DNA from: Candidatus Hodarchaeota archaeon
GTDB lineage: Archaea; Asgardarchaeota; Heimdallarchaeia; Hodarchaeales; Hodarchaeaceae
NCBI GenBank assembly: GCA_016839785.1
Contig: JAEOTQ010000068.1
Span: 1-42,784 of the forward strand
DNA length: 42,784 bases
Direction of reading: 5' to 3'
Position numbers and translations under genes: made by a program. Of the stretch, positions 11,643 to 29,182 are shown piece by piece (position 1 is the stretch's first letter; each line of letters starts with the position of its first letter). The notes under the pieces were generated by a model. The model worked only from the letters and a program-made list of their open reading frames with translations. It was not told the DNA's origin and did no database searches.

Positions 11643-13376
11643 GAATTTTCTCTTCATCTTAGCATAGAAAGTATCATATGTGGTATAACATTGATTGAGA
11701 TCACGAAAAATATTTTGTCTGGGTAACATTGTTCGAAGAGTGGCTGCACGATAATCCAAGATTAAACTTGCAGCAAAATCTGTTTCTGATCGAATTCCTC
11801 TCCCTATCGCTTGTGTTATGACTCGTGTTACTGGCAAAAGGGTGAGATGATCTGCCATCTTTCTCCCCCACTTTCTTGCATAAAGGTATTTAATAAGTTG
11901 ATTTGTTGCGTCCGGTCGTGTGTAGGGTACACCAGCGATAATAATGAGAGTTAACAGACTACGTTTTGTTTGTGGATGAAGGATTTCGATACCTTCAGAT
12001 AACTTTCCACCTAGGACACCAAAAATCACTTCATGGGTTTTTCTGTGCAGATCATCAATAAAAATTGGTCTCTCACCTGACTGTTCAACATAAACGTTAG
12101 GAATGGTCATATGTACAAGAATTTGTTGTTTGAGTTCATGTGAAGGTGTGAAAACTATGGTATGAAAGGGGTTACTCTTATGCATTCGTTGAATGACCGT
12201 TGCCATAGCTTGAAAGGTTTGAGAAGTTCTTTCTCTAAATTTCGTTGTGAATCGTCTGTGATATAGAATACCATTGAGACTAAATTGAAAATCCGAGGGA
12301 ATATGCAATCCAGGAAAATTTAACCCATACAAAGTCTTATAGGAGGATACAGGTTGGAAGGTTCCCGACATCAGAAGGATGTTCTGAAAATTGTTATCCA
12401 CATATTTAAAAGTAGTTTGAGGGAACGGATTAAGTTGTATCAATTTTTCTGGTTCTGAAATCCAGATTTCTCCTCTGCTGTTTAAAAAATCTTTAATTGT
12501 AAGGAGATTATTTTGCTCCCACAAGGATAATTTGGTTTGATGATCAAGAAATGCATCTATCGCGTCTGATGTTAAATTTTGGGGACGGTCCACTCTCCCA
12601 TGTCGATTTTGAATTAATTCTTGTAGATTGTCAAATACTTTTAACGGAATAACGTTTTTTGCTTTATGGATATCATTTAAAGATATTTCTGACTCGATTT
12701 CTGCTGAAAAATTATGGCCCTCATCAATAATGCAGATTTTGTGTGGATAGGTACTTTTTTGAAGGAGGGTAGAAAGCATACTCTGCAGATTCTTGCTTCT
12801 TAGATATGTATGTGTAGTAACAATGATATTTGCGTAAGGAATGCAGCGTTTAATGATATAATATGGACACCCAAATTCCTGGAGTGTATCCTTGAAATTT
12901 TCAATCTTATTTTCCCCTTCATGAGTTGTTATGGGAACCTGTTCTACAATAGCTGGAAAATCTTCTTCAGGGATAGAACGGGCTTTTTCTAAGTGCGGAC
13001 ATCGCAGCTTCCCACATATACCCTGATAGAAAAAAGGGATATCATTTCGGATACACAAATCTGACTTCAGAATTAACGGAAGAGCAGTTAAATATCCATA
13101 TCTATTAGTATTCGCTATTTTACGGATTTCATTGAGAAACACATGGAAAATTTGAGCTTTAGTCCGTACGAAAATATAAAGCTGGTACTGTCGTGTTTTT
13201 ACTAGTGGTAAAGTACTTATTAGTGCCATTACCGTTTTTCCAAACCCAACTGGAGCATGGATAATTGCCCGTGGGTGTCGTTCGACAAATCTGAGAAATC
13301 TTGCTTGATATGCACGTAGTTCTTCATGTGGAAAAAGTTCTATTTCGGGAGGGAGGTTTATTTCCAAAGGTAGCAA
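11622..13376 (-). CDS. xpd: XPD/Rad3/DinG family Fe-S DNA helicase
   Basis: RAYQ Q-motif, APVGFGKT, four Cys (DLC, GIC, RCP, GCPYY), DEGHN, MSGT, GKLSEGI, QAIGRGIR. Confidence 0.88.
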   Translation of the reverse strand: MLPLEINLPPEIELFPHEELRAYQARFLRFVERHPRAIIHAPVGFGKTVMALISTLPLVKTRQYQLYIFVRTKAQIFHVFLNEIRKIANTNRYGYLTALPLILKSDLCIRNDIPFFYQGICGKLRCPHLEKARSIPEEDFPAIVEQVPITTHEGENKIENFKDTLQEFGCPYYIIKRCIPYANIIVTTHTYLRSKNLQSMLSTLLQKSTYPHKICIIDEGHNFSAEIESEISLNDIHKAKNVIPLKVFDNLQELIQNRHGRVDRPQNLTSDAIDAFLDHQTKLSLWEQNNLLTIKDFLNSRGEIWISEPEKLIQLNPFPQTTFKYVDNNFQNILLMSGTFQPVSSYKTLYGLNFPGLHIPSDFQFSLNGILYHRRFTTKFRERTSQTFQAMATVIQRMHKSNPFHTIVFTPSHELKQQILVHMTIPNVYVEQSGERPIFIDDLHRKTHEVIFGVLGGKLSEGIEILHPQTKRSLLTLIIIAGVPYTRPDATNQLIKYLYARKWGRKMADHLTLLPVTRVITQAIGRGIRSETDFAASLILDYRAATLRTMLPRQNIFRDLNQCYTTYDTFYAKMKRKFLSDSPP

Positions 13377-13379
13377 TCC

Positions 13380-15974
13380 TCAGTGTGATTCAAGTTCTTC
13401 TTGAAGCCTTTTTCCTTGTTTAAGCAGACTAAGGTGGATATCAAGAACTCCGATGTCAGGGTAAGTTTTCAACTCTAATGCCTTAGTGATGGATTGTAGT
13501 GCCACATATCTTTCGTTAGGCAAAAAATCATCAAGATTACTAGCAGTCACATCCGAAACACTAGGTAAAATTGGAGGTGAGTCTAATTTTGCATTTTTAG
13601 GCGCATTCTTTATGTTTCGAATATCCACCATTAATTCAGAACAAAGCTCATCAGCCAAAGAGAACAGCTGACGAAAGTCTTTTCCCTCAATTCCATCAAT
13701 CGCGAGCAAATCGGTATATTGGGCATATCGCTCCCACGGTATCGAATTGTTTCTTTGGTAGAGATGATGGAGAACTCCCCCAACCATATTTTTGATTTTA
13801 ACATTATCCTCACGACATTTCTGTACAGAAGCAGTTCTTTCAAAAAATCTCTCTGTATTTCTAATCTCCCATCGAGTTTGTTCAATTGTATTGGCATTTT
13901 TAGCCACTGGTAGATTTTCCAACATTGTCAAATGTAGATCGTAGAAGTCGGATCCTTTTACAGTAATATCCCATTGCCGTGCTGATCCAATTTCTACTTC
14001 TTTGAACAATCCATAGGATTTTAACCCATCTAGAAGCTTTTCTTGGGTACTATCAATATCCAATTCTTCGTGAAGTGCGTCTCTATATAACGTTTGATTC
14101 CTTAGAATTTTTAGGGTCTTCATTAACATTTTAAATTTTGTGGGACTTAATCCTAAAGTTTTCGATCCTCTTAATTGAGTTTCTTTGACCTTAATCGGAG
14201 CAAGATCAATTGGAACTTTTCCAGAATCCATTTTAAAATGATAGGCAGTACTTTGAGAAGTATCACCTCTGAATAATAAACCTTCACCCTCCCTAATTCC
14301 CATAATTTGGCGTTCGATGAATGAGGATTGCGTATACTCCCTAACTTTTAATTGGTGTTGGGTAATAACGATTTCCCGATCCGCCGTATTCACTAGTCGT
14401 AGGTAGATCTGATTCTTTATTTCTTCGAAAGAATTCACTTTCGTAGCTAATGCCTGGACACTTTGACTACCAAGAACAAGTACATTTTTTCGTGCAAGAG
14501 AATTACACGAGTCAATTAAAACTGTAGGAATTCCAGTTTGTCCTCTCCCATATGATGTTTTTCTGCTTAAAATTTCATCTGCATGAGGAAATATAATATA
14601 CCCGTTATAAGCTACATTAGATAAGAATTGAAGTAGAAATGCAACTACAGCTCGTTTAATCATAGGAGGTTGAGCTCCAAATTGAAAAATAGTAATTGAA
14701 TCATCTCGAAAAAGCATATTACTAAGATGTCCTGTAAAAGCTGGATAATTTACCTCATCAAATGATTTAAACTGATTTAAGATCCCATTTAAATGTTCAA
14801 TTGCCATCAAATCAGCAAAAACTCCATCCGTTGCCCCAATAGAGGGCTGTTCTACATCATCAGAAACCTCACCCAATGTCGTGACAACATCATTAAGAGT
14901 AAATGATGTTGAACCCGCTGCATTTCTAATTTGGGCTTCAAGAGGTATTGCAAATCGTGAAGTGAGATAATCAGAAGTTGATAATGAGCTTAAAAGAATA
15001 TTACTAACTAGATGAGCCTTCCAAGTATTTATAGCTTTAGATTCTTGTATTTTCCCACTCGGAGAGGAAGGTATAATGACATCACATAGATTAATAAACA
15101 TGTTTGTGCCCAATCGAAACAACTGAAGATTTATTCCCGTTTTAATAGATGAAAGTGATTGAAAATGGTGAATTAATCCATTAAATTCATTGTGAGTATC
15201 GATGACGAAAGTACCCTTATTTTTCGAATTGCTAAAGGAGAGAATCAAGTTCTGAAAAAGAGTGATTAATTCGTTTTTATCAGATCCACACACGAGAACG
15301 GATCCATTAGATAAAATAGGAAAGCCAACAGGTATTGAGACATTATCAATGCGATGACCAATCCTATGTGTTACAGGTAAATCAGGAACAGGGAAATCCT
15401 GAATAAAACGTGAAGGTACTCGTTCTAGGCTAAAGAATCTGTCAATCAACTTTGATGTGGATCCCGTTTGAGAGGGAAATATTGTGATTCCTTTTTTCGT
15501 CTTCTTTCCATGAAAATGGAGATCAAAAATCTGTTTTCCTTTAACAATCGTTACTTCGAATCCAGCTGCCTTGAGAATAGTATATGTAAGCGTACGTCGT
15601 TTAAGAAACTCATTTCTCACTTGGCGCACTATAGTAGGCAAAATTGACTCTGAGCGAATGTAAAAACGATAGTATACACGTACTATAAGGGAAAGCCCCG
15701 TATAGGAAGTTTCCCGCCTTGAATACGATTTTGAGTCTCGGGGAAGGGCAGTAAAAGCTTGTCGGAGAACTTGAACTCCAGGTTGACTCGTTACTCTGAA
15801 TAAGTTCTTAGAAGCGTTGTCTAAATCGTGGACTGGTTGAATTGCATAGTAGGAAACAAGAATTCCTATGGAAGCATACAGTTGTTCTGTTTCACTGGGC
15901 GAGTGGTCAATCTGAAGAAGAGTGGTATTATCCTCCAGAATTTTTGTTGCTAATTGTGTGGAAAGCGTTCCAAC
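13380..15974 (-). CDS. HerA/VirB4/FtsK-superfamily protein with degenerate Walker motifs and a C-terminal winged helix; reading frame open 111 codons upstream of the called TTG at 15641
   Basis: VIDTHNEF, LVLGSQS, NQIYLRLVNTAD and IREGEGLL match HerA landmarks; Walker A reads VLVCGSDKNE and Walker B reads YIIFPHAD; no in-frame stop between 15642 and 15974. Confidence 0.65.
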   Translation of the reverse strand, partial: VGTLSTQLATKILEDNTTLLQIDHSPSETEQLYASIGILVSYYAIQPVHDLDNASKNLFRVTSQPGVQVLRQAFTALPRDSKSYSRRETSYTGLSLIVRVYYRFYIRSESILPTIVRQVRNEFLKRRTLTYTILKAAGFEVTIVKGKQIFDLHFHGKKTKKGITIFPSQTGSTSKLIDRFFSLERVPSRFIQDFPVPDLPVTHRIGHRIDNVSIPVGFPILSNGSVLVCGSDKNELITLFQNLILSFSNSKNKGTFVIDTHNEFNGLIHHFQSLSSIKTGINLQLFRLGTNMFINLCDVIIPSSPSGKIQESKAINTWKAHLVSNILLSSLSTSDYLTSRFAIPLEAQIRNAAGSTSFTLNDVVTTLGEVSDDVEQPSIGATDGVFADLMAIEHLNGILNQFKSFDEVNYPAFTGHLSNMLFRDDSITIFQFGAQPPMIKRAVVAFLLQFLSNVAYNGYIIFPHADEILSRKTSYGRGQTGIPTVLIDSCNSLARKNVLVLGSQSVQALATKVNSFEEIKNQIYLRLVNTADREIVITQHQLKVREYTQSSFIERQIMGIREGEGLLFRGDTSQSTAYHFKMDSGKVPIDLAPIKVKETQLRGSKTLGLSPTKFKMLMKTLKILRNQTLYRDALHEELDIDSTQEKLLDGLKSYGLFKEVEIGSARQWDITVKGSDFYDLHLTMLENLPVAKNANTIEQTRWEIRNTERFFERTASVQKCREDNVKIKNMVGGVLHHLYQRNNSIPWERYAQYTDLLAIDGIEGKDFRQLFSLADELCSELMVDIRNIKNAPKNAKLDSPPILPSVSDVTASNLDDFLPNERYVALQSITKALELKTYPDIGVLDIHLSLLKQGKRLQEELESH

Positions 15975-15999: not shown

Positions 16000-17016
16000 C
16001 TATTTCCCCGAATAGTCCCGGATTCCATCCGTATCGATAGAAAATTCGACTTTTCCATCAGGTAACTCTGGATTCTTGGTAAGAGTTGCAGTACGCTTTA
16101 CATCTTTTCCTTTACGAATCATGAGACGTGTAGTGACCGTGTGACCTACAACATTACCACCAATTGGTTTATTTGGATCTCCAAAGAACATAGCATCAGG
16201 TTTTGCCGAAACTTGGTTTGTTACCACCGCAACACAATTCATAATCTCTGATTGCTTTGCCATGAATGCCAAATATTTTCCAATAAGCTGTTGACGTTCA
16301 GCCAAGGTTGCTCTTCCAGCGAACTCTGAACGGAAATGTGCCATCAGGGAATCAACAATGATTAAACCTACATTGGGAACCATCGTTAAAGCCTCTTCTG
16401 TTAAAGCCATTTGATGTTCACTGTTGAATGCTCTTCCCACCGTTATCTGTGACAATATAGTATCAGGATCAAGATTAAGTGCTTTGGCCATTTGAGAAAT
16501 TCTTGTAAATCGGAAAGTTCCTTCAGTATCAATCCAAACTGCAGCTTTTCCATTTTTTACACAGTTTACCGCTAGTTGGTGCGAAATCTGTGTTTTACCA
16601 CAACCATTTTCACCAGCTATCTCAGTAATTGATCCAGTTTCGAATCCTCCTCCAAGTAGCTCATCGAATGCTTCAGAAGAGGTTGTTAAGTACTCACGTG
16701 TCTCACCTAGTTTCGCATAATGAGATCCAGGTTTTAATCCAAGATCAAATTGGGAACGAGCTTCTTGTATCAGTAAAGTTGCCGTTTTTTCAGCAATTCC
16801 TGATATTTCGGAGAGCTGTGATCGAGTAGCTAAGGCTATGGTCTCTTTAGAGCCAAAACCAGCTCCTTCTAGTCTTTTTCGTGTTGTTGGACCTATTCCT
16901 GAAATTGTATCGAGAAAGTTCGGCTCTTTTGTATCCTTTCCTCGGATTTTATTTCCTTTTTCGGGAATCGGGTCCTCAACAACAGTTTTTTCTTTTTTTG
17001 CTTCAGCTTTTGCCAT
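16000..17016 (-). CDS. radA: DNA repair and recombination protein RadA
   Basis: N-terminal HhH (ISGIGP), LLGGGFETG, GENGCGKTQ, WIDTEGTF, IIVDSLMAHFRSEF, LAERQQ, TNQV, PIGGNVVGH. Confidence 0.95.
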   Translation of the reverse strand: MAKAEAKKEKTVVEDPIPEKGNKIRGKDTKEPNFLDTISGIGPTTRKRLEGAGFGSKETIALATRSQLSEISGIAEKTATLLIQEARSQFDLGLKPGSHYAKLGETREYLTTSSEAFDELLGGGFETGSITEIAGENGCGKTQISHQLAVNCVKNGKAAVWIDTEGTFRFTRISQMAKALNLDPDTILSQITVGRAFNSEHQMALTEEALTMVPNVGLIIVDSLMAHFRSEFAGRATLAERQQLIGKYLAFMAKQSEIMNCVAVVTNQVSAKPDAMFFGDPNKPIGGNVVGHTVTTRLMIRKGKDVKRTATLTKNPELPDGKVEFSIDTDGIRDYSGK

Positions 17017-17084: not shown

Positions 17085-17169
17085 AAAATTGTTTATTTAT
17101 AAACTACTTATAAAGATCAGTTTCGAATATATAAGATGTAGATTCCCCTCATTACTGAGGGTCTTTCGA

Positions 17170-20100
17170 TTGTGGAAAAAAATTGAAACTGGATTAAGAA
17201 ATTCTTTATTATTTATTATACTTGGAATATTCGTTTTAGTAAATCTAGGTTTTACTCAAGTCATGGCTGCGGATCTAGAGACTTCGACAGCAGTATTAGC
17301 TGATAAAGGCAATGTGGGTTCAGGTGAGATAATTCACTTTTTAATGTGGACATACATGGGATTTGATTCTGTAGCATTTGGTCAAATCCGATTAACAGAC
17401 ACCTTTACAGGTGCATATATCACTACTACAATTACGAATGGCACCGCAACAGTCGATTGGCTTGTCCCTTCTCCCATTCAATCTGGTGAGCATATTTTTC
17501 TTGCAGAGTATCTGGGTTTTTCAGGCTATCTCCCTTCAAATGGATCTTGTGTTGTAATCTTTGAAGAGATTAGTCCAGGAAGTACTCGTTCCACCTCTTT
17601 GCTATTGGGCGTTAACTCTACAACCGTGTATAAGAATGCCTCAATTCATTTTACACTTACACTATTTATTCATTATAGGTGGTGGTTCCAGGGGGGATTC
17701 CTCACCGTAACTAATGTCAATCTGACTGGATCTCCAGTAATCTATACCTATGGACCGTTAGAAAACTATTATCCAGGAACGGATCCTGCAATCTTGACAC
17801 TTGAGTTTGATTATGAAATTCCTGTCTTTTCGGAAATTGGGGCTTCCCAATTTTATGCAAGTTATACTGGTAGTTCTCAGAGTCAAACAACTCCCTGTAG
17901 CTCAAATCTCGTTAATGTAACTGTTTTAAGTTCGGGTTACTGGCTAACTCAAGACATCAACGCAACAAAAGTTCAACGTACAGAAGAATCAGTGTTAATC
18001 AATACAACAATTCTTGGAGACAATCCTAGTGGATTAACGCTTTCCATTTTTTATAAAATTGACATAAAACAGATAATAATTGCAAAAAAAGTGGTAGTCG
18101 ATCGAAATATTCGTACTTTGTTTTTTCCTAACAGTTCACTACCTTTAGGAGACCTCATAATCTTTACTGAGCTAAGAAATGAAATTTCTGACGATTTGTA
18201 TGCTAATACTTCATCATCTACCACCATACAGGATCGTGCAAGGATTCAGTCTTATTTAAATTCCACATATTATAGGCAAAATGAAACAATTCTTCTTGAA
18301 GCCTACATTACACTAGAAGATATCCATACTGTTCCCGTGATATGTCAGGTTGAATTGAGAGATTTAACAGAAGGAAATATTTCATTAATGAATAAATCTA
18401 CTAACTCAAATGGATTTGTCTCATTTACTTATTCTTTAACAGAAGATAATACCGTTGGAAACCATGAATTCGTCATAGCGATATTCGATCTTGAACCAAA
18501 TATTCTCAAGGTTTCTACGAGTATTCTTGTTCCAATAAAAGGATTAATCGAATTTGATTTGACATACGAAAGTGGGGGAATCCTTCGAAACACGAATACT
18601 CAGATAGAAGTGACAGTATTATCCGGGGGAATAGTAATTAACGAAGGACTAGTCTCATTTATGTACAACAATTATACTATTATTGACACTCAAAGTTGCA
18701 TTGCAGGATTGGTCTTTAATTATTACATAAGTCATGATCATCCCTTAGGTGATACATATCTCCTTATCGCCTTTCATGATTAAGATAATTATGATGAAGA
18801 GATTACTACATTCAAAATTACTGTGCTTTCGGTTCCTCATTTTGATTCGCTTAATCAAAACTCAACAGAACTGAGTAAAGGACAATCAGGAAGGTTTTGG
18901 GGATATATCTTAGACGAGGATGGAGAGGCCGTAATTAATGAAGTTATTCACTTTACAGACACTACAATTGGGGAATATCTAGGGTTTGTGCTTTCTGATG
19001 CAGAAGGCCTGTTTTTCTACGATTATCTTGTTTCTGAAACCTCCCAAATAGGAGTACACATCATGCAATGTGATTATCAAGGAAATATCGGGGCTTTCTA
19101 TTTACCGACAGTCAACCCAAGAATTTTTTCGATAATTGTTCGTCCTGCTCTGTCACTAATGGTTGAGGAAGTACTACTCGCCAATCACTATTCTGTTCTA
19201 GAACTCAAAGGTGGGTTGAATGAAGACATATCTCTACATTGGCAACGAGATGGTTCAGCAGTTTGGGATTTCATTGCTGTTGTTTCCTTGAATGCTTCTG
19301 GAATTGGAAACTATAATTGGACAACACCTTACTATAAGGGTGGGTTATCTTTACGTGCTTCGAATTTGAATAATACGAGTTTTAAGTTTGATCATACGTT
19401 CATGTATAGTATTGCTAATATTGAAGTTATTGGGGATGGCATTGGGAATGTCAATAGTGATTATCATTTTACGATTAATTGTACAGAAATTTATCAGATT
19501 TGGATAGATGGTCTTTTATGGAAAGACTGGATTCCCTCAGGAAAGCATTCATACTTATACAGTTTCAGTAGTAGGGGAATAAGGGAGATTAGTATTATCA
19601 GTAATGATACATATGTCTTCTACAAGGTCTATCAGCATCAAGTTACTATATATGAGGATCTAATTGTTTCTGTCAGTGTTCCTCAAGAAGCTCTTGTAAA
19701 TTTGTCAATTAATATTGACGGTACTGTGATCGGAGAAGTATCAGGACCAATAACTGGGATAGATGCAATTCTCCAAATAAATGAGGTGGAAAGAGAGATT
19801 GATTCTACAAATGGTGCGGGAATGTTTGATTTTTTAATTTCATTCGACCATCCCGGAATCTATACAGTATCGGTAAAGGTGCCTTTACAAATTGAAGATT
19901 ACTATAATACCTCATTTAGTACTCAATTTTCTATTATAATCCATTCTCTTCCCTCTAATATCGAAATCATCTCCCCCACAAATAATTCTAGTTATGGAGC
20001 AATAATAGAACTTTCTTTTCATGGAGATGCTGAGAATTATTGGTATTTTATTGAACCTCTTGATCTTATGAACACTTCATGGGTTGATACGGTTTATCGT

Positions 20101-21984
20101 GAATTACCTGAGGGTGATTACACCTGTCATGTATATGGAGAGAATTCCTATGGTATCTTATCTTATGCTTCCTCATCATTTCGAATAGATATTACTGCGC
20201 CTTCATTAATTGTTACCAGTCCAAGAAACGAGTCCTATAATACGAATACTGTGTTACTTTCGTATTTAACTAATGCAGATGATGTAAGAATATTTCTAGA
20301 CGGCAGTACAATCATCAAAAGTTCAGGTACAAGTTTGACAGAATTATCAGAAGGAGATCACAACTTAACTATCCTTGTTAGGGATACGGTAGGTAATTTC
20401 GTACTAAGGTCCTCCATTTTCAAGGTTGATACAGTTGCCCCATTTTTAACAGTGTATTCTCCCTATAATCGTAGCTACATTGAGAAGGTACCTTTGACCT
20501 TCGATTCAGATGGTCAGCTAGTCCTTTACTATATTACAGATGTTCACAGTACTAATCTAACTTTTAAATCTTCTATACAACTGTATTTACCGATTGGAAG
20601 TTATACACTCAATATTTATTCTTTTGACTCAGCTGGAAACGTTAAAACAGAGCAAATTGATTTTTCTATGGTCGAAAAGATTGACCTTTTAGTTAACTCC
20701 CACCTCACTGTAGTAAATCCTGCTGGAAATTACCTTCTAAGTACAGAGATATTATCCAACCCATATTTCGATCAAGTTGGTTTTTACTTGAATGGGAGTC
20801 ATTTCGGATTATTAACCTGGGATCCCTTTCATCAGGATTATCGAATTGCCCTTCAGTTACCCTCTCCAGGCAATTGGGAAATAAGCCTGTATGCAAGAAC
20901 AATAGATGAGAGGTATGATTTCAGAGAATTTCTTGAAATCTGGTCTCCGCCGAAGCCAATTATCACTTCTCTGTCGGTTTCATGGGAATCAAATTATTAC
21001 GAATTGAGAACAACGATTGATTCACAGTCTCTTGATCTTGATCTTGTTCAAATCTCACTAGATGAGACGAATTATAGTTTAAACAATTTTTTCGGAGATC
21101 AATGGTATGTACAAGTGTATATTAATCCACAAAATTATACTCTTAACTTAAATATATGGTATCCGTGGGATAACGAACCCTCGATAAGTAAAGAATTTGA
21201 TATTCTGTGGTATGCACCTCAAATTATTGTTGTAGACTCACATTTTGAAAGAAATGGGTTCGATTTAGAAATACGTATTGAGAAGGTAAACGCATCAATT
21301 TCTAACGATATCCCAGTAATGATATTAGAGGGCCTACCTCGAAACTACTCTGTTAACGGAAACTTAGTCTATGAATCAGCAATTGGAAGTTACCAAATAT
21401 GGCATTTCACATCCCCATGGCTAGCCCCTGATATGTGGAACTATAGTCTATCTATTTCTGATATCTATGGACAGTCTAACCAGTTTTTTGGCGTTTTCAA
21501 TTCAACAGATTCTCCACCAGAGATCGGCGATTTATCTCTAACAATTTTAGATAATACATCAACAGGGGTTTTATTTCGTATATCTGTCCAAGTCATTGAT
21601 GATTATGCTATTAGTGATGCGATTCTCTATATTAATGGTGTAGAATATTCATTCACTTTGATAAATGATTCATACATAACTCTTGATTTCTTTCTAACTC
21701 CAGGTTTATACGTTCTCCATTTATCTGTGGTAGATGATGTAAATCATGAAACTGCTAAGTGGTTAACTAATTTACATATCCAGAGTACGACTAATCTAAC
21801 CACTACTTCTGAACTAATCGATTTGACTAATCAGTCTACCCAAACGTCTCATAACTATACTCAACAAGAAGTAAAATCGCCTTCAGGTGTTAGTGGTCTA
21901 GTTGAAGTCGGTTTAGGCACAAGTTTATTTGCTACTCTTGTCGCTCTCGCTAATTCAATATTTCGAAAAAAGAGGTCTGAGTAA
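17170..21984 (+). CDS. Large (~1600 aa) secreted, C-terminally membrane-anchored Ig-like repeat surface glycoprotein, interrupted by one in-frame TAA at 18781-18783
   Basis: The two track ORFs are in the same frame, separated only by TAA. Signal peptide follows TTG 17170; beta-rich repeats (IDITAPSLIVTSP, VDTVAPFLTVYSP, DSAGN); many N-x-S/T sequons; T/S linker, TM helix and RKKR tail. Confidence 0.75.
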
Positions 21985-21985
21985 A

Positions 21986-22549
21986 ATGAAAAACAGCACT
22001 CATTATCTGTTTTCTTTAGGTTTAATAAACACATACGGGATGTTTGTCATTGATGGAAGGCTTTTCTCCTGGTTGATCATTATTCTATCAACAATTCTCA
22101 GTTTCTTTAGTTGGGTTCCTAATATACTTGATCAATACATGGGGGCACAATATGAAAATGAAGGTGTGTTATTAACGAGGAATAGACATCCATTAACGCA
22201 TTCTCCTTGGACGATATTCTATTTTCTTCCTTTCCTTTATCTTGTCCAAAAATCACATATTCCAATTTTAGAATCGATAATATCATTACTTGCAATAAGT
22301 TGGATTTCACATTTGGTGCTGGATTCCTTGAATCCAGGTGGATTACCTTTAGGAATACAACCTGTCTTTAGGAATCATCCTGTCAAACATTACAGATTTC
22401 ATTCTACAAGACCTCAAGAAACAAGACGATTACGTTTAGCAAGAATTCCATTCAATGATCCAAAAGCAAATAAGAATCTAGGACAATTTGGGTTATTCAT
22501 TTTTTCATTAAATTGTACAAGAACGTTTCTTTCATTCTTTAGGAGCTAA
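21986..22549 (+). CDS. YdjM-like membrane-bound metal-dependent hydrolase
   Basis: STHYLF, PNILD, RHPLTHS and SHLVLDSLNPGGLP motifs with TM helices; ATG 1 nt after the upstream stop. Confidence 0.75.
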   Translation: MKNSTHYLFSLGLINTYGMFVIDGRLFSWLIIILSTILSFFSWVPNILDQYMGAQYENEGVLLTRNRHPLTHSPWTIFYFLPFLYLVQKSHIPILESIISLLAISWISHLVLDSLNPGGLPLGIQPVFRNHPVKHYRFHSTRPQETRRLRLARIPFNDPKANKNLGQFGLFIFSLNCTRTFLSFFRS

Positions 22550-22555
22550 CGAGGG

Positions 22556-23614
22556 TTGTATAAAAGAAGTATGGGGCGAATAAATGTTATAGTTATCATG
22601 TTCATCATTATCCAAGGATTAACGGTCATAATTGAGGGAAATTCAACGGATTCTGTCATTCAGCAGGAGAAAAATTCTAGCTCGTATGATTTGAATTATT
22701 CTTACGTGATGAACTCACCAGAACTGACTTTTAATCGTATAATTGTATTATCTAGAAACTGGAATAAGTTATTTCTTAATTTATCGGTTCAAAATTATGG
22801 TGAACCCATTGATACAGTACTCACATCAGTTAAAATTAATAATGTACTTACTGAGCAAGCTTTTTCTAGTATTGAACGAGAAGGACTTAAAAATTGCATT
22901 GTTTACCAGTTCGACCAACCTCAATTCTTAATTATCCCCCTAAATTATTCATATCAAGAAATTCTGTCTATTTCGATTTCATTACATTTGGATTCTTTGA
23001 TATCATGGCGTGAAGTGGAATACAATTTTGCCATATTTTCTGCAATCCTTTATTCTGTTAATCTTGTAGAACCTCTAAATAACCAATCTTTAATGATTTT
23101 CTCTAATAGCTTTCAGTTCGCTCTCCAACCGTCACGAATATCATCTTTTGGAAAACGCCTACTATTGAAAAGTTTAATTCCCGTGGAGATTCCAGATAAT
23201 ATGTACCTTTCCTCAATTCTTGAAATTACAATGAGTGGTGGACGATTTGATTATGTAACTGTCAGTACAGGAACTAATTATGCGATAAATGGAAATTTCG
23301 TAAGAATCAATTCAACAGTAAACAGAAACAACCTCAAAAATCAGATTTGGCACTTAAATCTTTATATTATACCAATTATTGACTCTCAGGAAGAATATTC
23401 GTTAATCACTTTTTCTATTCAGGCTTACGGGTTTTTAAAAGAAAAAATAATCAGATATCAGAACTTGGATCTGATCAATCATCCCATCCCAGGAATTATT
23501 ATGACACCAGTTTTGATCCTACTCCTATTTGGAATTCCATATTATTATGTTTATCAGGAAGAATTGACTGAAAAAGACGATAGAATTATAGAATCTGAAT
23601 TAGGAAGAGTGTGA
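22556..23614 (+). CDS. Hypothetical secreted/membrane-anchored protein
   Basis: N-terminal hydrophobic segment, beta-rich body with sequons, C-terminal TM helix and acidic tail. Confidence 0.7.
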   Translation: MYKRSMGRINVIVIMFIIIQGLTVIIEGNSTDSVIQQEKNSSSYDLNYSYVMNSPELTFNRIIVLSRNWNKLFLNLSVQNYGEPIDTVLTSVKINNVLTEQAFSSIEREGLKNCIVYQFDQPQFLIIPLNYSYQEILSISISLHLDSLISWREVEYNFAIFSAILYSVNLVEPLNNQSLMIFSNSFQFALQPSRISSFGKRLLLKSLIPVEIPDNMYLSSILEITMSGGRFDYVTVSTGTNYAINGNFVRINSTVNRNNLKNQIWHLNLYIIPIIDSQEEYSLITFSIQAYGFLKEKIIRYQNLDLINHPIPGIIMTPVLILLLFGIPYYYVYQEELTEKDDRIIESELGRV

Positions 23615-23618
23615 AAGC

Positions 23619-24065
23619 ATGATAATCTCTTCTCAACCTTCTTTAGTTTCACCTCGTCCAAATGTCTTGATAGGGGATTATGACTCTTGTCTACACTTCA
23701 TTATTGAGAATAAATATGACGAATGGGTAGTTCCCAACCTCTTATGGATCGAGTATCGTGTAATTCCATTATCTTTTTTCTATCAGATCTCCCATCAACA
23801 TCCTAACTTGAATAGTAGTTTGTACTTCTTGGAGATGCTGTCATTCGAGGATTATAACAAAATTCTCGGTTCAAATATGCTTTCAACATTACATAAAGAT
23901 GGATTTGGATCACTGATAGTGAATTATCCTCACTTTTTTACTAACAACCATGAAAACTGGGCATTCCTCAAAAAATTGGCAAGCTCTTTGGTAGTTACTG
24001 TTATAGTTCCCAAAGATCTGTTTCCATTAGAGGAATGCACCCAAATTGTAGTTAATTCACCATGA
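23619..24065 (+). CDS. Minimal, degenerate RecA-fold-like protein
   Basis: Order of segments NVLIG, LLWIE, LYFLEMLSFED, GSLIVNY, LKKLASSLVVTVIV parallels the RadA core; no GKT. Stop overlaps the next ATG (ATGA). Confidence 0.5.
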   Translation: MIISSQPSLVSPRPNVLIGDYDSCLHFIIENKYDEWVVPNLLWIEYRVIPLSFFYQISHQHPNLNSSLYFLEMLSFEDYNKILGSNMLSTLHKDGFGSLIVNYPHFFTNNHENWAFLKKLASSLVVTVIVPKDLFPLEECTQIVVNSP

Positions 24066-24763
24066 GAACCACAGTTCAATTGAAAAGTTTCCAATGTATG
24101 AATGACGAACTCGAAACTTCTCATAAAATTCCAACAGGTATGGATATTATTGATAATCTTCTAGGGGGCTTTTTTGCAGGACATATTCATTCGATTATAG
24201 GTGAATCTGGAGTCGGAAAATCCTGGTTATGTCAAAGAGTTGTTAACTCACTCCTTGAATATGATCAGAATGCTAGTGTTCTTTATTCAGATTTTTCGGG
24301 CAATATTCGGTTAAAAAATCTCAAGAAATCGTTGAAAAAAACTGAATTCATGGAACAGGTTCATTTCTACCGACCCTCTTCTCTTCTAGAGAATGTTATT
24401 TTCTGTAAGAAAATTCTTGATGGACAACTTCCAAATATTTCCCTGTTAATCTTAGACACGGTATTTGGATCCCCTATGCAAGTTTACGAGCTATTGGGCA
24501 GATCTAAGAAAAAATGGGAACGAAATATTTTTCTTTTTATGTTAGATCTCAGAAAAATTGCTATTACTAAAAATATTCCCATTCTCATTTCTCACCATGC
24601 ATCTTCCAATAACATAAAGAAAATAAAGGGTGAAGAAGATCGAATAGACCCTTTCTGTACAACAAAATCTGTATTACAAAAATCTGGTCAAGTATCTTCC
24701 CTAAAGTTTTACGTCTATAATCAATACTTGGGCTCAACAACTTTTAAATTGTTTTCAGAGTGA
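24062..24763 (+). CDS. RadB/Rad51-paralogue RecA-family ATPase without an N-terminal domain
   Basis: IPTGMDIIDNLLGGF, GESGVGKS, VLYSDFSG, LLILDT, LRKIAITKNIPILIS. Confidence 0.85.
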   Translation: MRTTVQLKSFQCMNDELETSHKIPTGMDIIDNLLGGFFAGHIHSIIGESGVGKSWLCQRVVNSLLEYDQNASVLYSDFSGNIRLKNLKKSLKKTEFMEQVHFYRPSSLLENVIFCKKILDGQLPNISLLILDTVFGSPMQVYELLGRSKKKWERNIFLFMLDLRKIAITKNIPILISHHASSNNIKKIKGEEDRIDPFCTTKSVLQKSGQVSSLKFYVYNQYLGSTTFKLFSE

Positions 24764-24791: not shown

Positions 24792-25661
24792 CTATAAATC
24801 AAGGTCTTCGAGAGAAAGGAAATCAATTCCTGTCTTATTCGTAAGTTTTCTCGCAGGTTTTTCAGTAGGTAACCAGAATAAGACGGGTTTCTTCACTTTT
24901 CCACCTTGTGCGATATAACCCACAATAAATAAACCAATTATATACACAACAAACCATATTGTTCCCAGAAAAATTGAAAGAAAAAAATTCTGTGTTCTCC
25001 AAAGTGTATCGAACGTGAAAACGATGTATACCAATATCGCGTTATAAAACCAAAAGGGTCTAATTTGAAGATTTATCATCAAAGCATGGATCATGAAATA
25101 CCAGTCATTAATACTAGGCATTAGCACTCCGAAAATCCCAATGAAGAGATATAAATGAACTAATCCTCCCACTTGAGACGATAGAACACCTGTGTCAGCA
25201 AATATCAACGGAGTCACAATAAAATACCCGAGTAACATCACAAAAGCGAGTTTATTAGGAGCAAAAGCTACTCGTCTAGCATAGTCGAAACGATTAAATC
25301 CCATAAGAAGTCCGGGATTTTCATCTGGAACATCTATACCTGAAATTAGGGATGCACGAAGATTACCAGTATCAATGATTGGTTCCTTTTCCCCAGATTC
25401 TTTACGTGATTCAATTTCCTTTAATATCTGCTTTGCTGTGTATACATGTAAATAAACATGAATCCATCGGAAGGGGAGGAAAAATATCACTAGAATTCTT
25501 CGCAAAAAAGGGAGGAAATAGAGAGTAATTTGTAGTAATATGTAGTATGAAAATTGTTTTACAAAAAAATCTACGAAATTCTCACCCTGAATAGCCTCCA
25601 CTGCATACCAATTAATGAAATCACTAAAACTCTTTACAAGAAGGTCCAATAGTTCAACCAT
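24792..25661 (-). CDS. Multi-pass membrane protein, zinc-metalloprotease-like (M50/DUF3267-like) with HExxH changed to HVYLH
   Basis: About 6 TM segments; LPFRWIHVYLH, VAFAP and MPSIND pattern. Confidence 0.55.
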   Translation of the reverse strand: MVELLDLLVKSFSDFINWYAVEAIQGENFVDFFVKQFSYYILLQITLYFLPFLRRILVIFFLPFRWIHVYLHVYTAKQILKEIESRKESGEKEPIIDTGNLRASLISGIDVPDENPGLLMGFNRFDYARRVAFAPNKLAFVMLLGYFIVTPLIFADTGVLSSQVGGLVHLYLFIGIFGVLMPSINDWYFMIHALMINLQIRPFWFYNAILVYIVFTFDTLWRTQNFFLSIFLGTIWFVVYIIGLFIVGYIAQGGKVKKPVLFWLPTEKPARKLTNKTGIDFLSLEDLDL

Positions 25662-26439
25662 TGTTAATTACTCCCTCTGAATGTTCGCATACCAATTTAA
25701 ATTCGCATTTACTGCACGAGTTTGATTCTTTTGGTCTAAATTCATGAGATTGGAACTTTTTTATCAAAACATCTAACTTAGGTTTAAATGTTCTGGAATT
25801 ATAACTACTTATGCTATTGAACGAAATTTTCATTGATCGGTAATCAATCGAAATAATTCTAGTCAGGTCACTAGGATATAAGTTAACCAAACATAGACTA
25901 AAAATATTAGTTTGAGATTTATCTTCATTATCTCGGGGGAGGGAGTAATTTTGAATTATTGCAACTATTTTATTGTCAGAATATTGGATTAGAGCAGTTG
26001 GACTTTCCCTTATTAGGTTTTTCAGGACTTTGGTTTGAGGGAGGAATGAAATAGAGATAGGATATCTCTTTTTTTTACCCCTTTTTTCGCTTTCTTGGCT
26101 GATAGATTGCAATATAAAATTTAAGAACATGTAAACTTTAGGTGTAAAATTCTCTCCAGAAGTTAATTGGATTGGAGTATGCTTAATACAGGAATAGTCT
26201 AAAGGTAATGTTTCTCTAATTTTTTTGAAGTCACTAAAGGTATTCTCAGTTTGAATATCTAAAATTGCAGCAAGGATTGAAAAATATTGGGATGAAACTC
26301 GTTTAATGTCATTATATGCGTTTTCAACCAAACTCCAGCTAGATTCCTCAGTTAAACGTATATTTCTTATTTTATATAAATAAAAATATCGTGGGCAAGA
26401 CAAATACTGCTCCAGTATTTCTGATGTTAAGTAAGCCAT
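25654..26439 (-). CDS. Cas4/AddB-like PD-(D/E)xK-fold Fe-S protein, solo, with degenerate catalytic motifs
   Basis: N-terminal QYLSCPRYFYL and C-terminal CSKCEFKLVC (1+3 Cys staple); the expected PD and E-x-K positions read SPTAL and IIQNY. Confidence 0.7.
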   Translation of the reverse strand: MAYLTSEILEQYLSCPRYFYLYKIRNIRLTEESSWSLVENAYNDIKRVSSQYFSILAAILDIQTENTFSDFKKIRETLPLDYSCIKHTPIQLTSGENFTPKVYMFLNFILQSISQESEKRGKKKRYPISISFLPQTKVLKNLIRESPTALIQYSDNKIVAIIQNYSLPRDNEDKSQTNIFSLCLVNLYPSDLTRIISIDYRSMKISFNSISSYNSRTFKPKLDVLIKKFQSHEFRPKESNSCSKCEFKLVCEHSEGVINNG

Positions 26440-26452
26440 TGTACACCCATTT

Positions 26453-26911
26453 TTACATAATTATTTCAATATCCTCGAACTCTATCCGGTGAAATCGAGA
26501 TTTCAATAAACCTCTTGAAAGGAGAAACATGACTTTCTGAATACGATCCTCAGATGAAGCGCCAAAAGCCTGTAAAGTAATTTTAGTCTCCGAAATAATC
26601 CTCACACCTAATCCAATCAATTGTCGATTTGCTAGATCTGAGTAATTGATGAATTGGATGAACAGGCCACTATTTTCAATGAAACTTCTAAGATCACTTC
26701 TGGAGATCATATTAGATGCTTTTCCTGAATAATAAGGTAATATCGCTTCTAATTGAGCAGCTCCCTCCTTGTAAACTTGTCTAACTATTACAAATTCCTC
26801 TATGGTCCAATATGTCTCAGTAATCATGATAATATCGAATTTTCCTAAAGATAATCCGAAAAATAAGTTATCATAGATAACTATATGGGGATCCTGTAAT
26901 AAATTTGTCAT
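26453..26911 (-). CDS. Hypothetical protein
   Basis: First gene of a three-gene minus-strand unit; ATG at 26911 preferred over TTG at 26986; no recognised motif. Confidence 0.6.
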   Translation of the reverse strand: MTNLLQDPHIVIYDNLFFGLSLGKFDIIMITETYWTIEEFVIVRQVYKEGAAQLEAILPYYSGKASNMISRSDLRSFIENSGLFIQFINYSDLANRQLIGLGVRIISETKITLQAFGASSEDRIQKVMFLLSRGLLKSRFHRIEFEDIEIIM

Positions 26912-27034
26912 CCTGATAAAGCCTCGAAGAAAAATTGTTCTTCTAATACTGATTATGTACAGAGCATATATACTCAAAATCAACACAGAAATCGAGATAC
27001 TTATAATACGGTAAACTCAATTTAGAATTGAAAG

Positions 27035-27232
27035 GTGGTATTCTTGGGAAATGAGACCAACAAATCAACATTCAAACTGTGTATCTCTTTGCTAGCAACT
27101 TCGGGCAACTCCCTTTCTTATTGCACTAAGTATCATGAGTGGATAAGTAAATGCCCCAATCAATGCACATTCTTTACTGAAGGGGAAATTGGAGTATTAG
27201 AAGAGGCTGAACGTAAAAAATATAACATCTAA
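27035..27232 (+). CDS. Small Cys4 protein
   Basis: C-x13-CTKYHEWISKCPNQC pattern, similar to the first Cys cluster of ORF 1350..1679; start uncertain. Confidence 0.55.
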   Translation: MVFLGNETNKSTFKLCISLLATSGNSLSYCTKYHEWISKCPNQCTFFTEGEIGVLEEAERKKYNI

Positions 27233-27326
27233 TGCTTTTATTTTTCAAGAATAATTACCAATAAGGTGAGATTTCATTGTACGTTATTCACTCAAGATAA
27301 TCCATTTTGTGAATCTTGTCAATATG

Positions 27327-28664
27327 CTAAATTGGGGTAATTTCTTCTGATTCCTCTAAGTTGATATCAGCTAGAAGCCTAGGTTTAATCTTAAAATACC
27401 GGTCTTCATAGTTTACCAAGTCAGGTAACTTGAGTGATACAATTGTCTTTACTGTGTGGGTCAATGCTTCCTCAGCATCAAGCTTAATCCATGGTAAACT
27501 CTTATTTTCAACACGTTCAACATTTAATAATGGTAATAATGAGTGAAAGCTAGATCGAAAAGGTAATTGGAATTCATAGGTTTCTTCTGCGCCTAAAAAC
27601 CAAACTCGTTTATGATGTAATTGATTTTTCCTATCAGAAACTGTAATCAAAACGGGTATATGATCCATCTGAGGTGGAAGAGCTGAAATAGTAATTAATG
27701 CCGAAAATTTCTTTTTTCCTTTCTTGGAAACCTTCATTTCACAATGCCATTCTGGAGCTGGTTCTTTATTCAACCATCGGTTATAAAACTCCTTCACCTG
27801 AGAAAAATATTCATCTGGCCAAGTATCTCGAATCCCCCCTGTTGGGAGAAGAGCGCTTTCAACCCAAAGCTGCTTAGGTTTGTATAAAGAGGTAAAGTTT
27901 CGAATAATATTCTGATTGGGTTGATCTTTGTGATCAAAAACTGAAATGAGAAATGTAGGGCAGGAATGGAGCATAGATAGAGAATGATGTCTATCCCATC
28001 TAGTCCTCCACAGAAATGGCCAGAGTAATACTCGTGTCAGAAATCTGAAGAAAGAGACACCAAAACCAGAATAGGGTAGATTACATGTAATTAACGTACT
28101 TAAAGGGATAGGTCCATTTTCAAGGATAACTGCTTTTATTGGTTGGTCTTTTACCAAAGCACTCGCCAATAATGTACTAAGTGATTCGCTATATATTGCA
28201 ATTTTCCGTTTGTCAAGATTATCTCTGGAGATAAGATATTCGTATGCTTTTATGATCGTTAAAGTGTAATATCTTGGGGAATAGTTCTTTTTTAGGAGAA
28301 GTCGAGTTGACTCATCAATGATATGAATAACGGGGAGTAAAACATTGAACCCCATTAGTTGCAGTACTCCAGATGTTTTCAAACTATTTTCAAACGAACG
28401 CTCATTAATCCAATCAGGGATCATGAGAATGGTGGAATCATTTTCTTGCTTGCTGGGAAAGAACCAGGCTTTTTGCAATTTATCTTTGACAGGAAAGGAA
28501 ATCGGGATGGCTTCTAGGCCAAAATCACTCGGAAGATTCACAGGAAGATCCTTCCGTGCAGTAAAATAGATATAGAGATACGGGATGATCTCGGTACGAC
28601 GAATAATAATGACTAAGCAGATCAGTAGAATAAAGACTACTCCAAGCAATAAAGGATCAACCAT
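27327..28664 (-). CDS. Membrane-anchored alpha/beta-hydrolase-fold protein with a degenerate nucleophile elbow
   Basis: N-terminal TM; LQKAWFFP, GFNVLLP, AYEYL..LDKRKIAIYSESLS, IKAVILEN, PTFLI, PKQLWV. Confidence 0.7.
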   Translation of the reverse strand: MVDPLLLGVVFILLICLVIIIRRTEIIPYLYIYFTARKDLPVNLPSDFGLEAIPISFPVKDKLQKAWFFPSKQENDSTILMIPDWINERSFENSLKTSGVLQLMGFNVLLPVIHIIDESTRLLLKKNYSPRYYTLTIIKAYEYLISRDNLDKRKIAIYSESLSTLLASALVKDQPIKAVILENGPIPLSTLITCNLPYSGFGVSFFRFLTRVLLWPFLWRTRWDRHHSLSMLHSCPTFLISVFDHKDQPNQNIIRNFTSLYKPKQLWVESALLPTGGIRDTWPDEYFSQVKEFYNRWLNKEPAPEWHCEMKVSKKGKKKFSALITISALPPQMDHIPVLITVSDRKNQLHHKRVWFLGAEETYEFQLPFRSSFHSLLPLLNVERVENKSLPWIKLDAEEALTHTVKTIVSLKLPDLVNYEDRYFKIKPRLLADINLEESEEITPI

Positions 28665-28738
28665 AGTTCAAACTCACTTCCAATGGGGTACAATCAAAAC
28701 CTGTCTTAAAATAGGTATGGAAATTTAGTTAATATAAA

Positions 28739-29182
28739 TTATTTTGATAGAAGGCGTGAGTCCATTTCTTTTTCAATTTTTTTCAACGAAGCTATCATTG
28801 ATTCAAGGAATTGATTGTGTTCTTCAAATGTCGCATTTAGTTCCTTCAAAATATCAGCATTGGCTCTCTGAAACTCCCTAATTAAGCTCACTTTGTGTGC
28901 TTTTTGGTTTAAAGGATTTGTATGTTTGAAATCCCATTCACGCTTAAGAGCAAGCTTGCGTGAAGAATATTTTTCTAAATAAACTAGCTCAATTGGTTGT
29001 TTACGAGTGATTCGTGCACCTTTGGTACTATTTACTCCTATATGTTGGGTAAGACGATTTATAAGATGATGAGTATAACCTGTGTAAATTTTCCTGTTAA
29101 ACCCACGTGATTTTTCTCCCACAAGGAGCATATAGACCCAAAACGGCAATTTGAAACCCAGCTTCAGAAAGATTTCTGTCAC
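28739..29182 (-). CDS. GIY-YIG nuclease (UPF0213/Slx1-like)
   Basis: WVYML..IYTGYT..RLTQH..GARITR..PIELVYLE..ALKRE. Confidence 0.88.
   Translation of the reverse strand: MTEIFLKLGFKLPFWVYMLLVGEKSRGFNRKIYTGYTHHLINRLTQHIGVNSTKGARITRKQPIELVYLEKYSSRKLALKREWDFKHTNPLNQKAHKVSLIREFQRANADILKELNATFEEHNQFLESMIASLKKIEKEMDSRLLSK

Follow-up and report, generated by a model that had tools for sequence, protein, structure and literature searches.

The window analysed here is the whole stretch of 42,784 nucleotides (nt) taken from position 1 onwards of contig JAEOTQ010000068.1 in the genome of a Candidatus Hodarchaeota archaeon (GenBank assembly GCA_016839785.1; Hodarchaeales). Slightly beyond its middle lie two adjoining genes, which we refer to as S and L. 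An earlier note, made from the sequence alone, had described them as a translationally coupled pair of RecA-fold paralogues, reminiscent of the Rad51-paralogue heterodimers, and had suggested that they form a mediator of the recombinase RadA. The two genes and their junction are located as follows:

23619..24065, forward strand: S, an open reading frame (ORF) of 148 amino acids (aa), predicted to have a RecA-like fold without a P-loop; an orphan family
24062..24763, forward strand: L, an ORF of 233 aa, a divergent paralogue of the RadA/RadB core without the N-terminal HhH domain
24062..24065, forward strand: ATGA stop/start overlap of S and L, bases read from the sequence, indicative of translational coupling

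The bases at positions 24062-24065 are indeed ATGA and join the 148-aa and 233-aa frames as the earlier note had stated. In the related genomes, the stop of S and the start of L overlap or abut in 15 of the 15 loci examined, with overlaps of 4 nt (seven loci), 1 nt (three), 8 nt (one), 17 nt (one) and 29 nt (two) and a 3-nt gap in one locus; the L starts in this survey are the first start codons, a rule that can overextend the frame. Judging from this arrangement, S and L are translationally coupled. The public annotation of a protein 98% identical to L places the start at M13, giving 221 aa. Since residues 1-12 are conserved among 15 relatives of L and M13 is not, the start that overlaps S is to be preferred.

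The sequence of L contains the following motifs, the first two of which were named correctly in the earlier note:

24200..24223, forward strand: Walker A motif GESGVGKS, with G47, G50, G52 and K53 invariant in the 15 relatives
24290..24301, forward strand: DFSG, which replaces D-[TS]-E-[GA] of RadA and RadB in the alignment with the relatives, RadA and RadB
24443..24457, forward strand: Walker B strand LLILD, with D132 invariant in the 15 relatives
24080..24091, forward strand: L7-K8-S9-F10, an N-terminal hydrophobic motif, placed in a MAFFT alignment with L-K-P-G of the neighbouring RadA

The replacement in the DFSG motif affects the catalytic glutamate, which is absent from 14 of the 15 relatives: the column is occupied by Ser in eight sequences, by Cys in two and by Asn, Lys, Arg, Gln and Glu in one each. 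The column that corresponds to the Gln of the T-N-Q motif contains His (10 sequences), Tyr (four) or Asn (one), and Gln is found in none of the 15. Both residues, the Glu of D-T-E-G and the Gln of T-N-Q, presumably act in ATP hydrolysis. Alignment with RadA and RadB further showed that G-S-P is inserted behind Walker B, that the L2 region is shorter and that a C-terminal deletion has removed 15 residues.

Despite these changes, the affinity of L is recognizable over the complete ATPase core. Comparison of the L profile with a RadA/RadB profile by hhalign gave 99.15% with E = 3.9e-19 over 208 columns. When the Protein Data Bank (PDB) was searched with the profile of the 15 relatives, the best full-length match was RadA of S. 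solfataricus (2bke, E = 1.5e-11, profile positions 11-218), followed by DMC1, RAD51D (8.8e-9), RadB (2cvf, 6.9e-7), RAD51B and Rad55, while KaiC chains matched only at the P-loop region. The AlphaFold2 (AF2) model of L has a predicted local distance difference test score (pLDDT) of 83.6, and its best Foldseek matches are RAD51 and RadA (E ~ 1e-15, query-normalized TM-score, TMq, 0.75-0.78). These comparisons establish true homology of L to the RadA/RadB ATPase core and make it a divergent paralogue of RadA stock.

A key question is whether L can be placed in one of the established families. The best NCBIfam model for L is RadB (TIGR02237), at 29.8 bits against a cut-off of 172.4; RadA (NF003301; 26.8 bits, cut-off 259) and ArlH (NF052589; 24.3 bits against 215, residues 28-78) are likewise below their cut-offs. 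In Pfam, PF08423 (Rad51) gives 19.8 bits against a cut-off of 22, and PF06745 (KaiC) gives 22.1 bits against 26.6, over residues 23-70 only. Among the 15 relatives, the RadB model matches all 15 (best E = 6.9e-16), the RadA model 10 and the ArlH model five. Two true RadB proteins from other archaea (L073 and L081) score 224 and 229 bits, and both retain the Glu. The core layout of L is that of RadB: an ATPase core only, with Walker A and Walker B present and without the HhH domain. One source labels a relative of L 'RAD55 family ATPase', and one names such relatives 'archaellum bioge...'; by the labels that relatives of L bear, the lineage belongs to Hodarchaeales/Heimdallarchaeia.

Phylogenetic analysis was performed on 31 sequences, comprising 15 L proteins, the four RadA paralogues of the window's own genome, two RadA orthologues from the genus, one RadA-like protein from genome G034, two RadB proteins, five KaiC-like proteins of the own genome (the four best, C217, C74, C148 and C116, and C96) and two degenerate RecA-family proteins (C25 and C228). 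The L family was monophyletic (100/99) with a long stem and fell on the RadA side of the split from KaiC (95/86), outside the group formed by RadA, RadB and C25 (88/89); this topology comes from a small sampling with long branches and only two RadB sequences. The earlier note had proposed a phylogeny with RadB, aRadC and the RAD51 paralogues; the RadB part of it was carried out and places L outside RadA and RadB, in a tree whose rows, apart from the two RadB proteins, all come from Hodarchaeales. Thus, three assignments were rejected. L is not an ordinary RadB, the outcome that the earlier note had named as fatal to its view, considering its low score in TIGR02237, its position outside RadA and RadB in the tree and its loss of the Glu. 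It is not a KaiC or ArlH protein, because the similarity is limited to the P-loop and the family groups apart from the KaiC-like genes of its own genome. Finally, it is not a RadA/Rad51 recombinase, since it lies below the cut-offs, lacks the HhH domain, has a short L2, and the family keeps the Glu in one of 15 and the Gln in none of 15 sequences.

The S protein posed a different problem. The earlier note had ascribed to it a RecA-like strand order without a P-loop. Such an order cannot be read from the sequence alone; it is, however, borne out by the agreement between the AF2 model, the fold searches and the loop that follows strand 1:

23673..23681, forward strand: G19-D20-Y21 of S, a probable P-loop remnant after strand 1, from alignments and secondary structure

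No match to S was found in Pfam, NCBIfam, the PDB sequences (profile search), PADLOC or PHROGs. A word-indexed search of 5.8 billion proteins returned S itself only, and a profile of 16 relatives searched against 1.84 billion representatives gave 17 matches, all with E <= 9.4e-19 and without a remote tail. The AF2 model, obtained with a 29-sequence alignment, reached a pLDDT of 86 and a predicted TM-score (pTM) of 0.81. It consists of five beta-alpha units and a sixth strand, with strands at residues 15-18, 41-45, 68-72, 98-102, 125-130 and 141-144 and helices between them. The loop after strand 1 contains neither Lys nor Thr; conservation of G19 is 90% or more, and Y21, which does not vary in alignment A1, is located in the predicted interface with L. 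The strand equivalent to Walker B ends in Asn, Asp, Ser or His, followed by a conserved Pro.

The Foldseek search of the 148-aa model, which had been suggested in the earlier note, returned RecA-superfamily chains in all of the best 50 PDB rows (best E = 6e-5, TMq ~ 0.5-0.65), including RadA, RAD51, KaiC, a DnaB-type helicase and RAD51-paralogue complexes. A structural search against 48,161 representatives placed RAD51C first (8gja_A, Z 9.9, root-mean-square deviation 3.1, 136 residues aligned), followed by RAD51C in BCDX2 and 9omy_X, a chain of the RAD51-XRCC3-RAD51C complex (both Z 9.8), yeast Rad51 and DMC1 (both 9.7), RAD51D (9.4), FlaH (4yds_A, 9.3), UvsX (9.2), FlaH again (4wia_A, 8.9), RadB (8.8), KaiC (8.6) and Psy3-Csm2 (7.9). 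The best 15 rows all belong to the RecA superfamily, and only 23 chains reach Z 8 or more. Hence the objection foreseen in the earlier note, that the 148-aa protein might have some other fold, runs counter to these matches, and the assignment of the modelled S to the RecA-like fold is firm. A closer likeness of the model to the Rad51 clade than to FlaH or KaiC is not firmly established, because the difference lies within about 1 Z unit. Direct comparison of profiles by hhalign was not significant (S with L, E = 0.013; S with RadA/RadB, E = 0.024), although both alignments are collinear and in a structurally equivalent register, with I-L-W-I-D-Y of S on V-I-Y-I-D-T-E-G of RadA, followed by strand 3, the Walker B strand and strand 5. 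In protein-language-model features, the clusters nearest to S were those of the BcsE family (0.92/0.91, with 169 and 176 of 256 shared), which we regard as a lead only.

Another important question is whether the two proteins bind each other. In three predictions of the S-L complex with both alignments, the ipSAE (an interface score computed from predicted aligned errors) was 0.81 each time, whereas three controls gave 0.30, 0.01 and 0.00; in the calibration of that ipSAE mark, 58 of 80 solved complexes and 2 of 110 mismatched pairs attained it. At least 94% of the contacts were common to the S-L runs, with a pLDDT of at least 85 for the partners. The predicted contacts involve residues 5-11, 13-14, 17, 41-42, 153-169 (in part), 197-200 and 218-221 of L and residues 21-22, 42, 46-55, 58, 64-76, 78, 81-82, 104 and 106 of S. 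In S, the interface residues show stronger conservation than the other residues (mean entropy 1.79 versus 2.28, with 36 of 10,000 random sets equally low), with burial as a confounder of this comparison.

In the model, the L7-K8-S9-F10 segment lies on strand 3 of S beside the invariant F70, with residue 8 of L in contact with residue 70 of S. Judging by its spacing from the core, L-K-S-F sits where RadA and Rad51 carry their polymerization motif; the exact register of the polymerization Phe relative to L-K-S-F is partly our assumption. The ball-and-socket principle of that motif is described in the part of PMC5480776 consulted for it. Taken together, the models make it probable that S and L form a heterodimer of two RecA folds, one without a P-loop and the other without the catalytic Glu, which is what the earlier note had surmised.

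The distribution of the pair was surveyed by a six-frame search of 60 related genomes, 21 from the same genus and 39 from outside it. S was present in 17 of the 21 same-genus genomes (E from 6e-52 to 1.5e-9; 22-56% identity), and L gave strong matches (E <= 1.5e-28) in 16 of them. In all 15 pairs that were extracted whole, both frames are open and similar in length, and L follows S immediately in the same orientation; in the sixteenth genome with L (G021), the frames of both S and L are interrupted by stops. Chance alone does not account for such an arrangement. The two genes co-occur in 16 of the 16 genomes where both could be assessed, and one further genome has S at a contig end. Among the 39 genomes outside the genus, no convincing S was found: the three weak matches (E 0.01-0.04) were dismissed as chance, as they contain stops or lie inside a larger frame. 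The best L match outside the genus (G034, E = 1.7e-10) proved to be a RadA-like protein of 307 aa, in which Walker A is intact and D-T-E-A is present, and is no orthologue of L. Therefore, S-L is confined to one Hodarchaeales genus in everything searched, and because of this restriction the pair is not ancestral to the eukaryotic RAD51 paralogues.

Within the genus, the profile detected no S in genomes G008, G013 or G007. In G003, what is left of S is a stretch of 29 aa that ends at an in-frame TAA (G003:C138:29799-29885), directly behind the orthologue of the gene that precedes S in the window, and an intact S, L, a 289-aa membrane gene and a Cas4-like gene are missing, a block deletion; the relic with its stop indicates secondary loss. 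The ratio of nonsynonymous to synonymous substitution rates (dN/dS) in three genome pairs was 0.42-0.45 for S and 0.18-0.28 for L, compared with 0.04 for RadA and 0.04-0.07 for the convergent membrane gene; in this comparison, the row of the YdjM-like gene described below was left out for the window versus G014, and G014 versus G002 offered too few changes. S and L are thus under purifying selection yet fast-evolving.

The pair forms the end of a longer gene row, which together with the divergent radA comprises the following features in the window:

16000..17016, reverse strand: radA, canonical (NF003301 346.8 bits, PF08423 237.6 bits, HhH domain)
17089..21984, forward strand: first gene of the operon, giant surface protein with immunoglobulin-like (Ig-like) domains, a single ORF of ~1,600 aa in relatives
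21929..22549, forward strand: YdjM-like multi-pass membrane protein (PF04307 26.4 bits, G014 orthologue 31.7, cut-off 29)
22556..23614, forward strand: type-I membrane protein of 352 aa of no known family, with N- and C-terminal membrane segments

The start of the YdjM-like gene is probably later than the listed TTG. The order Ig-like giant, YdjM-like gene, 352-aa gene, S and L is preserved on one strand in 11 of 11 related loci (~14-20 kb), and the genes are packed in all 11, with gaps of at most 11 nt or overlaps. The 352-aa gene ends 4 nt before S in the window; among the 11 loci, four have a 4-nt overlap between its stop and the start of S and one has a 1-nt overlap, and the remaining loci show gaps of no more than 11 nt. 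The canonical radA, placed by the earlier note about 6.6 kb away, does lie 6,603 nt from the S start; it diverges from the operon across a 72-nt spacer and is its direct neighbor at nine of 11 loci, with one locus where the two do not adjoin and another that ends with the contig. In G003 and G008, the orthologous operon ends after the 352-aa gene, without S-L, and in the loci examined S-L was never seen away from the upstream trio.

Several further observations concern this neighborhood. In the window, the Ig-like giant is split into 564 and 1053 aa by an in-frame TAA at 18781-18783. In contigs of two public runs from one study, position 18782 is C instead of A (TCA, Ser) and the gene is intact, so that the TAA is either a strain variant or a consensus error. 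In G013, contig C191 (L057:669-2361) carries paralogous YdjM-like (205 aa) and 352-like (363 aa) genes, which overlap and are accompanied by neither an Ig-like giant nor S-L; YdjM-like and 352-like genes thus look like a recurring two-gene module. The flanks (10212-15641 and 25654-29182 of the window) contain repair-type genes encoding a ResIII helicase-like protein, an XPD-type helicase, a Cas4-like PD-(D/E)XK protein (weak matches) and a GIY-YIG protein. A 753-aa protein without a family assignment is also found there.

The window's own genome (84.5% complete, 3.4% contamination) contains four full-length RadA paralogues of 321-361 aa with a mutual identity of 38-63% (regions C150:35352-36086, C207:9590-10330, C137:8946-9650 and C19:16000-17016), and no RadB above the cut-off was found in it. 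Seven genes, radA included, exceed the PF06745 cut-off, and at least five genes encode KaiC-family single-domain ATPases. Of the two degenerate proteins included in the tree, C228:4823-5431 (reverse strand, 202 aa) grouped weakly with the L family (84/71), and the genes convergent to it look like mutS- and mutL-type genes, judging from motifs in their N-terminal sequences. The other, C25:11293-12090 (forward strand, 265 aa), precedes an ORF of 91 aa, and its Walker A region is degenerate.

What could such a pair do? We tentatively propose that S-L is a lineage-specific heterodimer made from RadA/RadB stock that serves as a non-catalytic accessory of the RadA filament, that is, a nucleator, a stabilizer or an end-cap. 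L would bind ATP and hydrolyse it poorly. It would donate its N-terminal L-K-S-F as an extra strand to strand 3 of S, in the ball-and-socket mode of RadA and Rad51, and the face of S that corresponds to its dead nucleotide site (Y21, P104) would be buried against L, so that the dimer may be independent of nucleotide. S, whose N-terminus carries no conserved motif, would terminate any chain, and the socket and the ATP site of L would remain available to a RadA protomer. In this way, one end of a RadA filament could be capped or seeded by S-L, much like the action of XRCC2-containing paralogue complexes on RAD51. The repair-rich neighborhood (radA and the XPD-type, ResIII-like, Cas4-like and GIY-YIG genes) counts in favor of this proposal.

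A number of observations weigh against it. The S-L score may reflect likeness to solved Rad51-family assemblies, many of which exist. Conservation of the L interface does not exceed that of the remaining residues (entropy 1.88 versus 1.63, with 9,349 of 10,000 random sets equally low). DNA binding by L is not evident, given that the L2 loop is largely missing and that the motif around L1 differs from that of RadA. The pair was not found in G003, G008 (99% complete), G013 and G007 and is therefore dispensable, and both genes evolve fast relative to RadA. Finally, S-L is the tail of a packed membrane/surface operon, and its upstream trio has no recognized role in recombination.

The operon context, which the earlier note did not mention, is the basis of the main rival explanation, in which S-L would be a cytoplasmic ATP-binding module of the membrane/surface system encoded by the operon, an assembly or signaling switch that does not act on DNA. 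The model for it is ArlH (FlaH), a RecA/KaiC-like protein that acts at the archaellum motor. In its favor, all 11 loci show the five genes tightly packed in one orientation, the five evolve at similar, fast rates, and S-L was not seen apart from the operon in the loci examined; in addition, the two FlaH chains lie within 1 Z unit of the best match to S, the ArlH model matches five of the 15 L relatives, and one source calls such relatives 'archaellum bioge...'. However, G003 and G008 retain the trio at the orthologous position but lack S-L there, and the YdjM-like and 352-like pair of G013 has no RecA-like gene. By sequence, L is nearer to RadA/RadB, over the full core as opposed to the P-loop only for KaiC and ArlH, and the neighbors scanned yielded neither an ArlI/ArlJ-like family nor a secretion-ATPase family. 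We consider this explanation rather unlikely, though by no means far-fetched.

The structural evidence for a cap would equally suit a fast-evolving protein pair shaped by genetic conflict, which as an antagonist or decoy would act against RadA, or against the recombinase of an invading element, and would poison or limit the filaments, since ATPase-dead capping subunits could also stop filament growth. The high rate and the patchy loss within the genus would agree with such a role, but dN/dS is below 1 throughout, no mobile-element genes were found in the flanks examined, and no defense-system model matched beyond the P-loop level. A known defense system was likewise discarded as an identity of the locus, given only P-loop-level matches for L and Cas4-level matches for a neighbor. 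An antagonist thus appears improbable. There is hardly any chance that L is an ordinary RadB and S an unrelated protein or a spurious overlapping ORF: RadB is the best NCBIfam model of L and matches all of its relatives, yet the bit score is a small fraction of those of true RadB proteins, L stands outside the RadA and RadB group, and the Glu is lost in all but one relative, while S is conserved, is under purifying selection, yields a confident model and is predicted to bind L.

Returning to the proposal of a RadA-filament accessory, it can be extended to the entire locus, in which the divergent unit of radA, Ig-like giant, YdjM-like gene, 352-aa gene, S and L would constitute one DNA-damage response module. 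Cell-surface contact or DNA exchange would then be coupled, via translationally linked subunits, to an end-capping pair for RadA. The presence of E. coli ydjM among the SOS-regulon genes, as stated in the part of PMC6590174 consulted, is a weak hint in this direction, and the crowding of repair-type genes in the flanks is a second weak one. We regard this extension as a long shot.

The proposed role gains shape from a comparison with known systems. Eukaryotic RAD51-paralogue complexes mix competent and dead RecA folds and are central to genome stability. Like the predicted S-L dimer, the complexes RAD51D-XRCC2 in BCDX2, the XRCC3 complex, Rad55-Rad57 and Csm2-Psy3 are built from RecA folds with ATPase-dead subunits; RAD51C, XRCC3, Rad51, DMC1 and RAD51D are the structures closest to S (Z 9.4-9.9), and the L profile matches RAD51D, RAD51B and Rad55 by sequence. 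According to the part of PMC7618403 consulted, the XRCC3 complex (XRCC3-RAD51C-RAD51D-XRCC2) stably caps the 5' ends of RAD51 filaments, the mode of action suggested above for S-L. There is no orthology between these complexes and S-L, which occurs in one genus and has L on its own long branch, and the resemblance is accordingly one of convergence or of parallel elaboration. Moreover, S, with 148 aa, is smaller than the eukaryotic subunits, the S-L genes belong to a surface/membrane operon, and S-L is known here from sequence and prediction.

We know of no obligatory small partner of RadB, which resembles L as a short RadA paralogue (TIGR02237) with the ATPase core only and both Walker motifs. 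L differs from it in the absence of the Glu kept in both RadB proteins, in the GSP insertion, the short L2 and the C-terminal deletion of 15 residues, and in its separate position in the tree. In the sections of PMC5480776 that deal with it, RadB is said to interact with RadA, is proposed to promote RadA polymerization and is recorded from Euryarchaeota only. ArlH/FlaH and the single-domain KaiC-like proteins (aRadC group) share with L a size of ~230 aa, the RecA-superfamily ATP-binding core and a non-motor, accessory character, while the sequence similarity is restricted to the vicinity of the P-loop (residues 23-78) and no archaellum genes were found among the neighbors scanned. The fourth comparison is the N-terminal domain of BcsE (PF10995), the nearest language-model family to S, with a chain of the Bcs macrocomplex at Z 7.3; this too is a lead only. 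We take this domain to be a degenerate RecA-like fold in a regulator of bacterial cellulose secretion, a P-loop-less interaction module. BcsE itself is a bacterial, multidomain sensor of cyclic di-GMP and shows no sequence similarity to S at the level of hidden Markov models.

In the portions of the literature consulted, no such pair is described for Asgard archaea, and the supplements of PMC12722695 and of the preprint bioRxiv 10.64898/2026.10.28.762692 may list L-like sequences. Work on Asgard RadA has dealt with full-length paralogues, and 'highly divergent, or RadB sequences' were removed before the trees were built (PMC12722695, in the part consulted). The archaeal mediators presented so far are single RadA paralogues, RadB and SsoRal1, as far as the consulted part of PMC5480776 goes. 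S-L would accordingly represent a new, lineage-specific form of the Rad51-paralogue-type heterodimers, with the heterodimer itself being likely on the predicted structures.

Restricted to one genus, the pair is not directly informative on the ancestry of the eukaryotic paralogues, and the reason for its coupling to genes of surface and membrane proteins is a question apart. If the whole locus did act in the response to DNA damage, an Asgard lineage near the eukaryotes would have independently made a P-loop-less partner of the XRCC2/Shu type and tied it to the membrane. If S-L is a RadA-derived pair of an ATP-binding subunit with impaired hydrolysis and a minimal subunit without a P-loop, the pairing of competent and dead RecA folds would arise readily from RadA in archaea, and the 148-aa and 233-aa proteins would offer a small two-protein system in which the capping or seeding of filaments by dead RecA folds could be studied.

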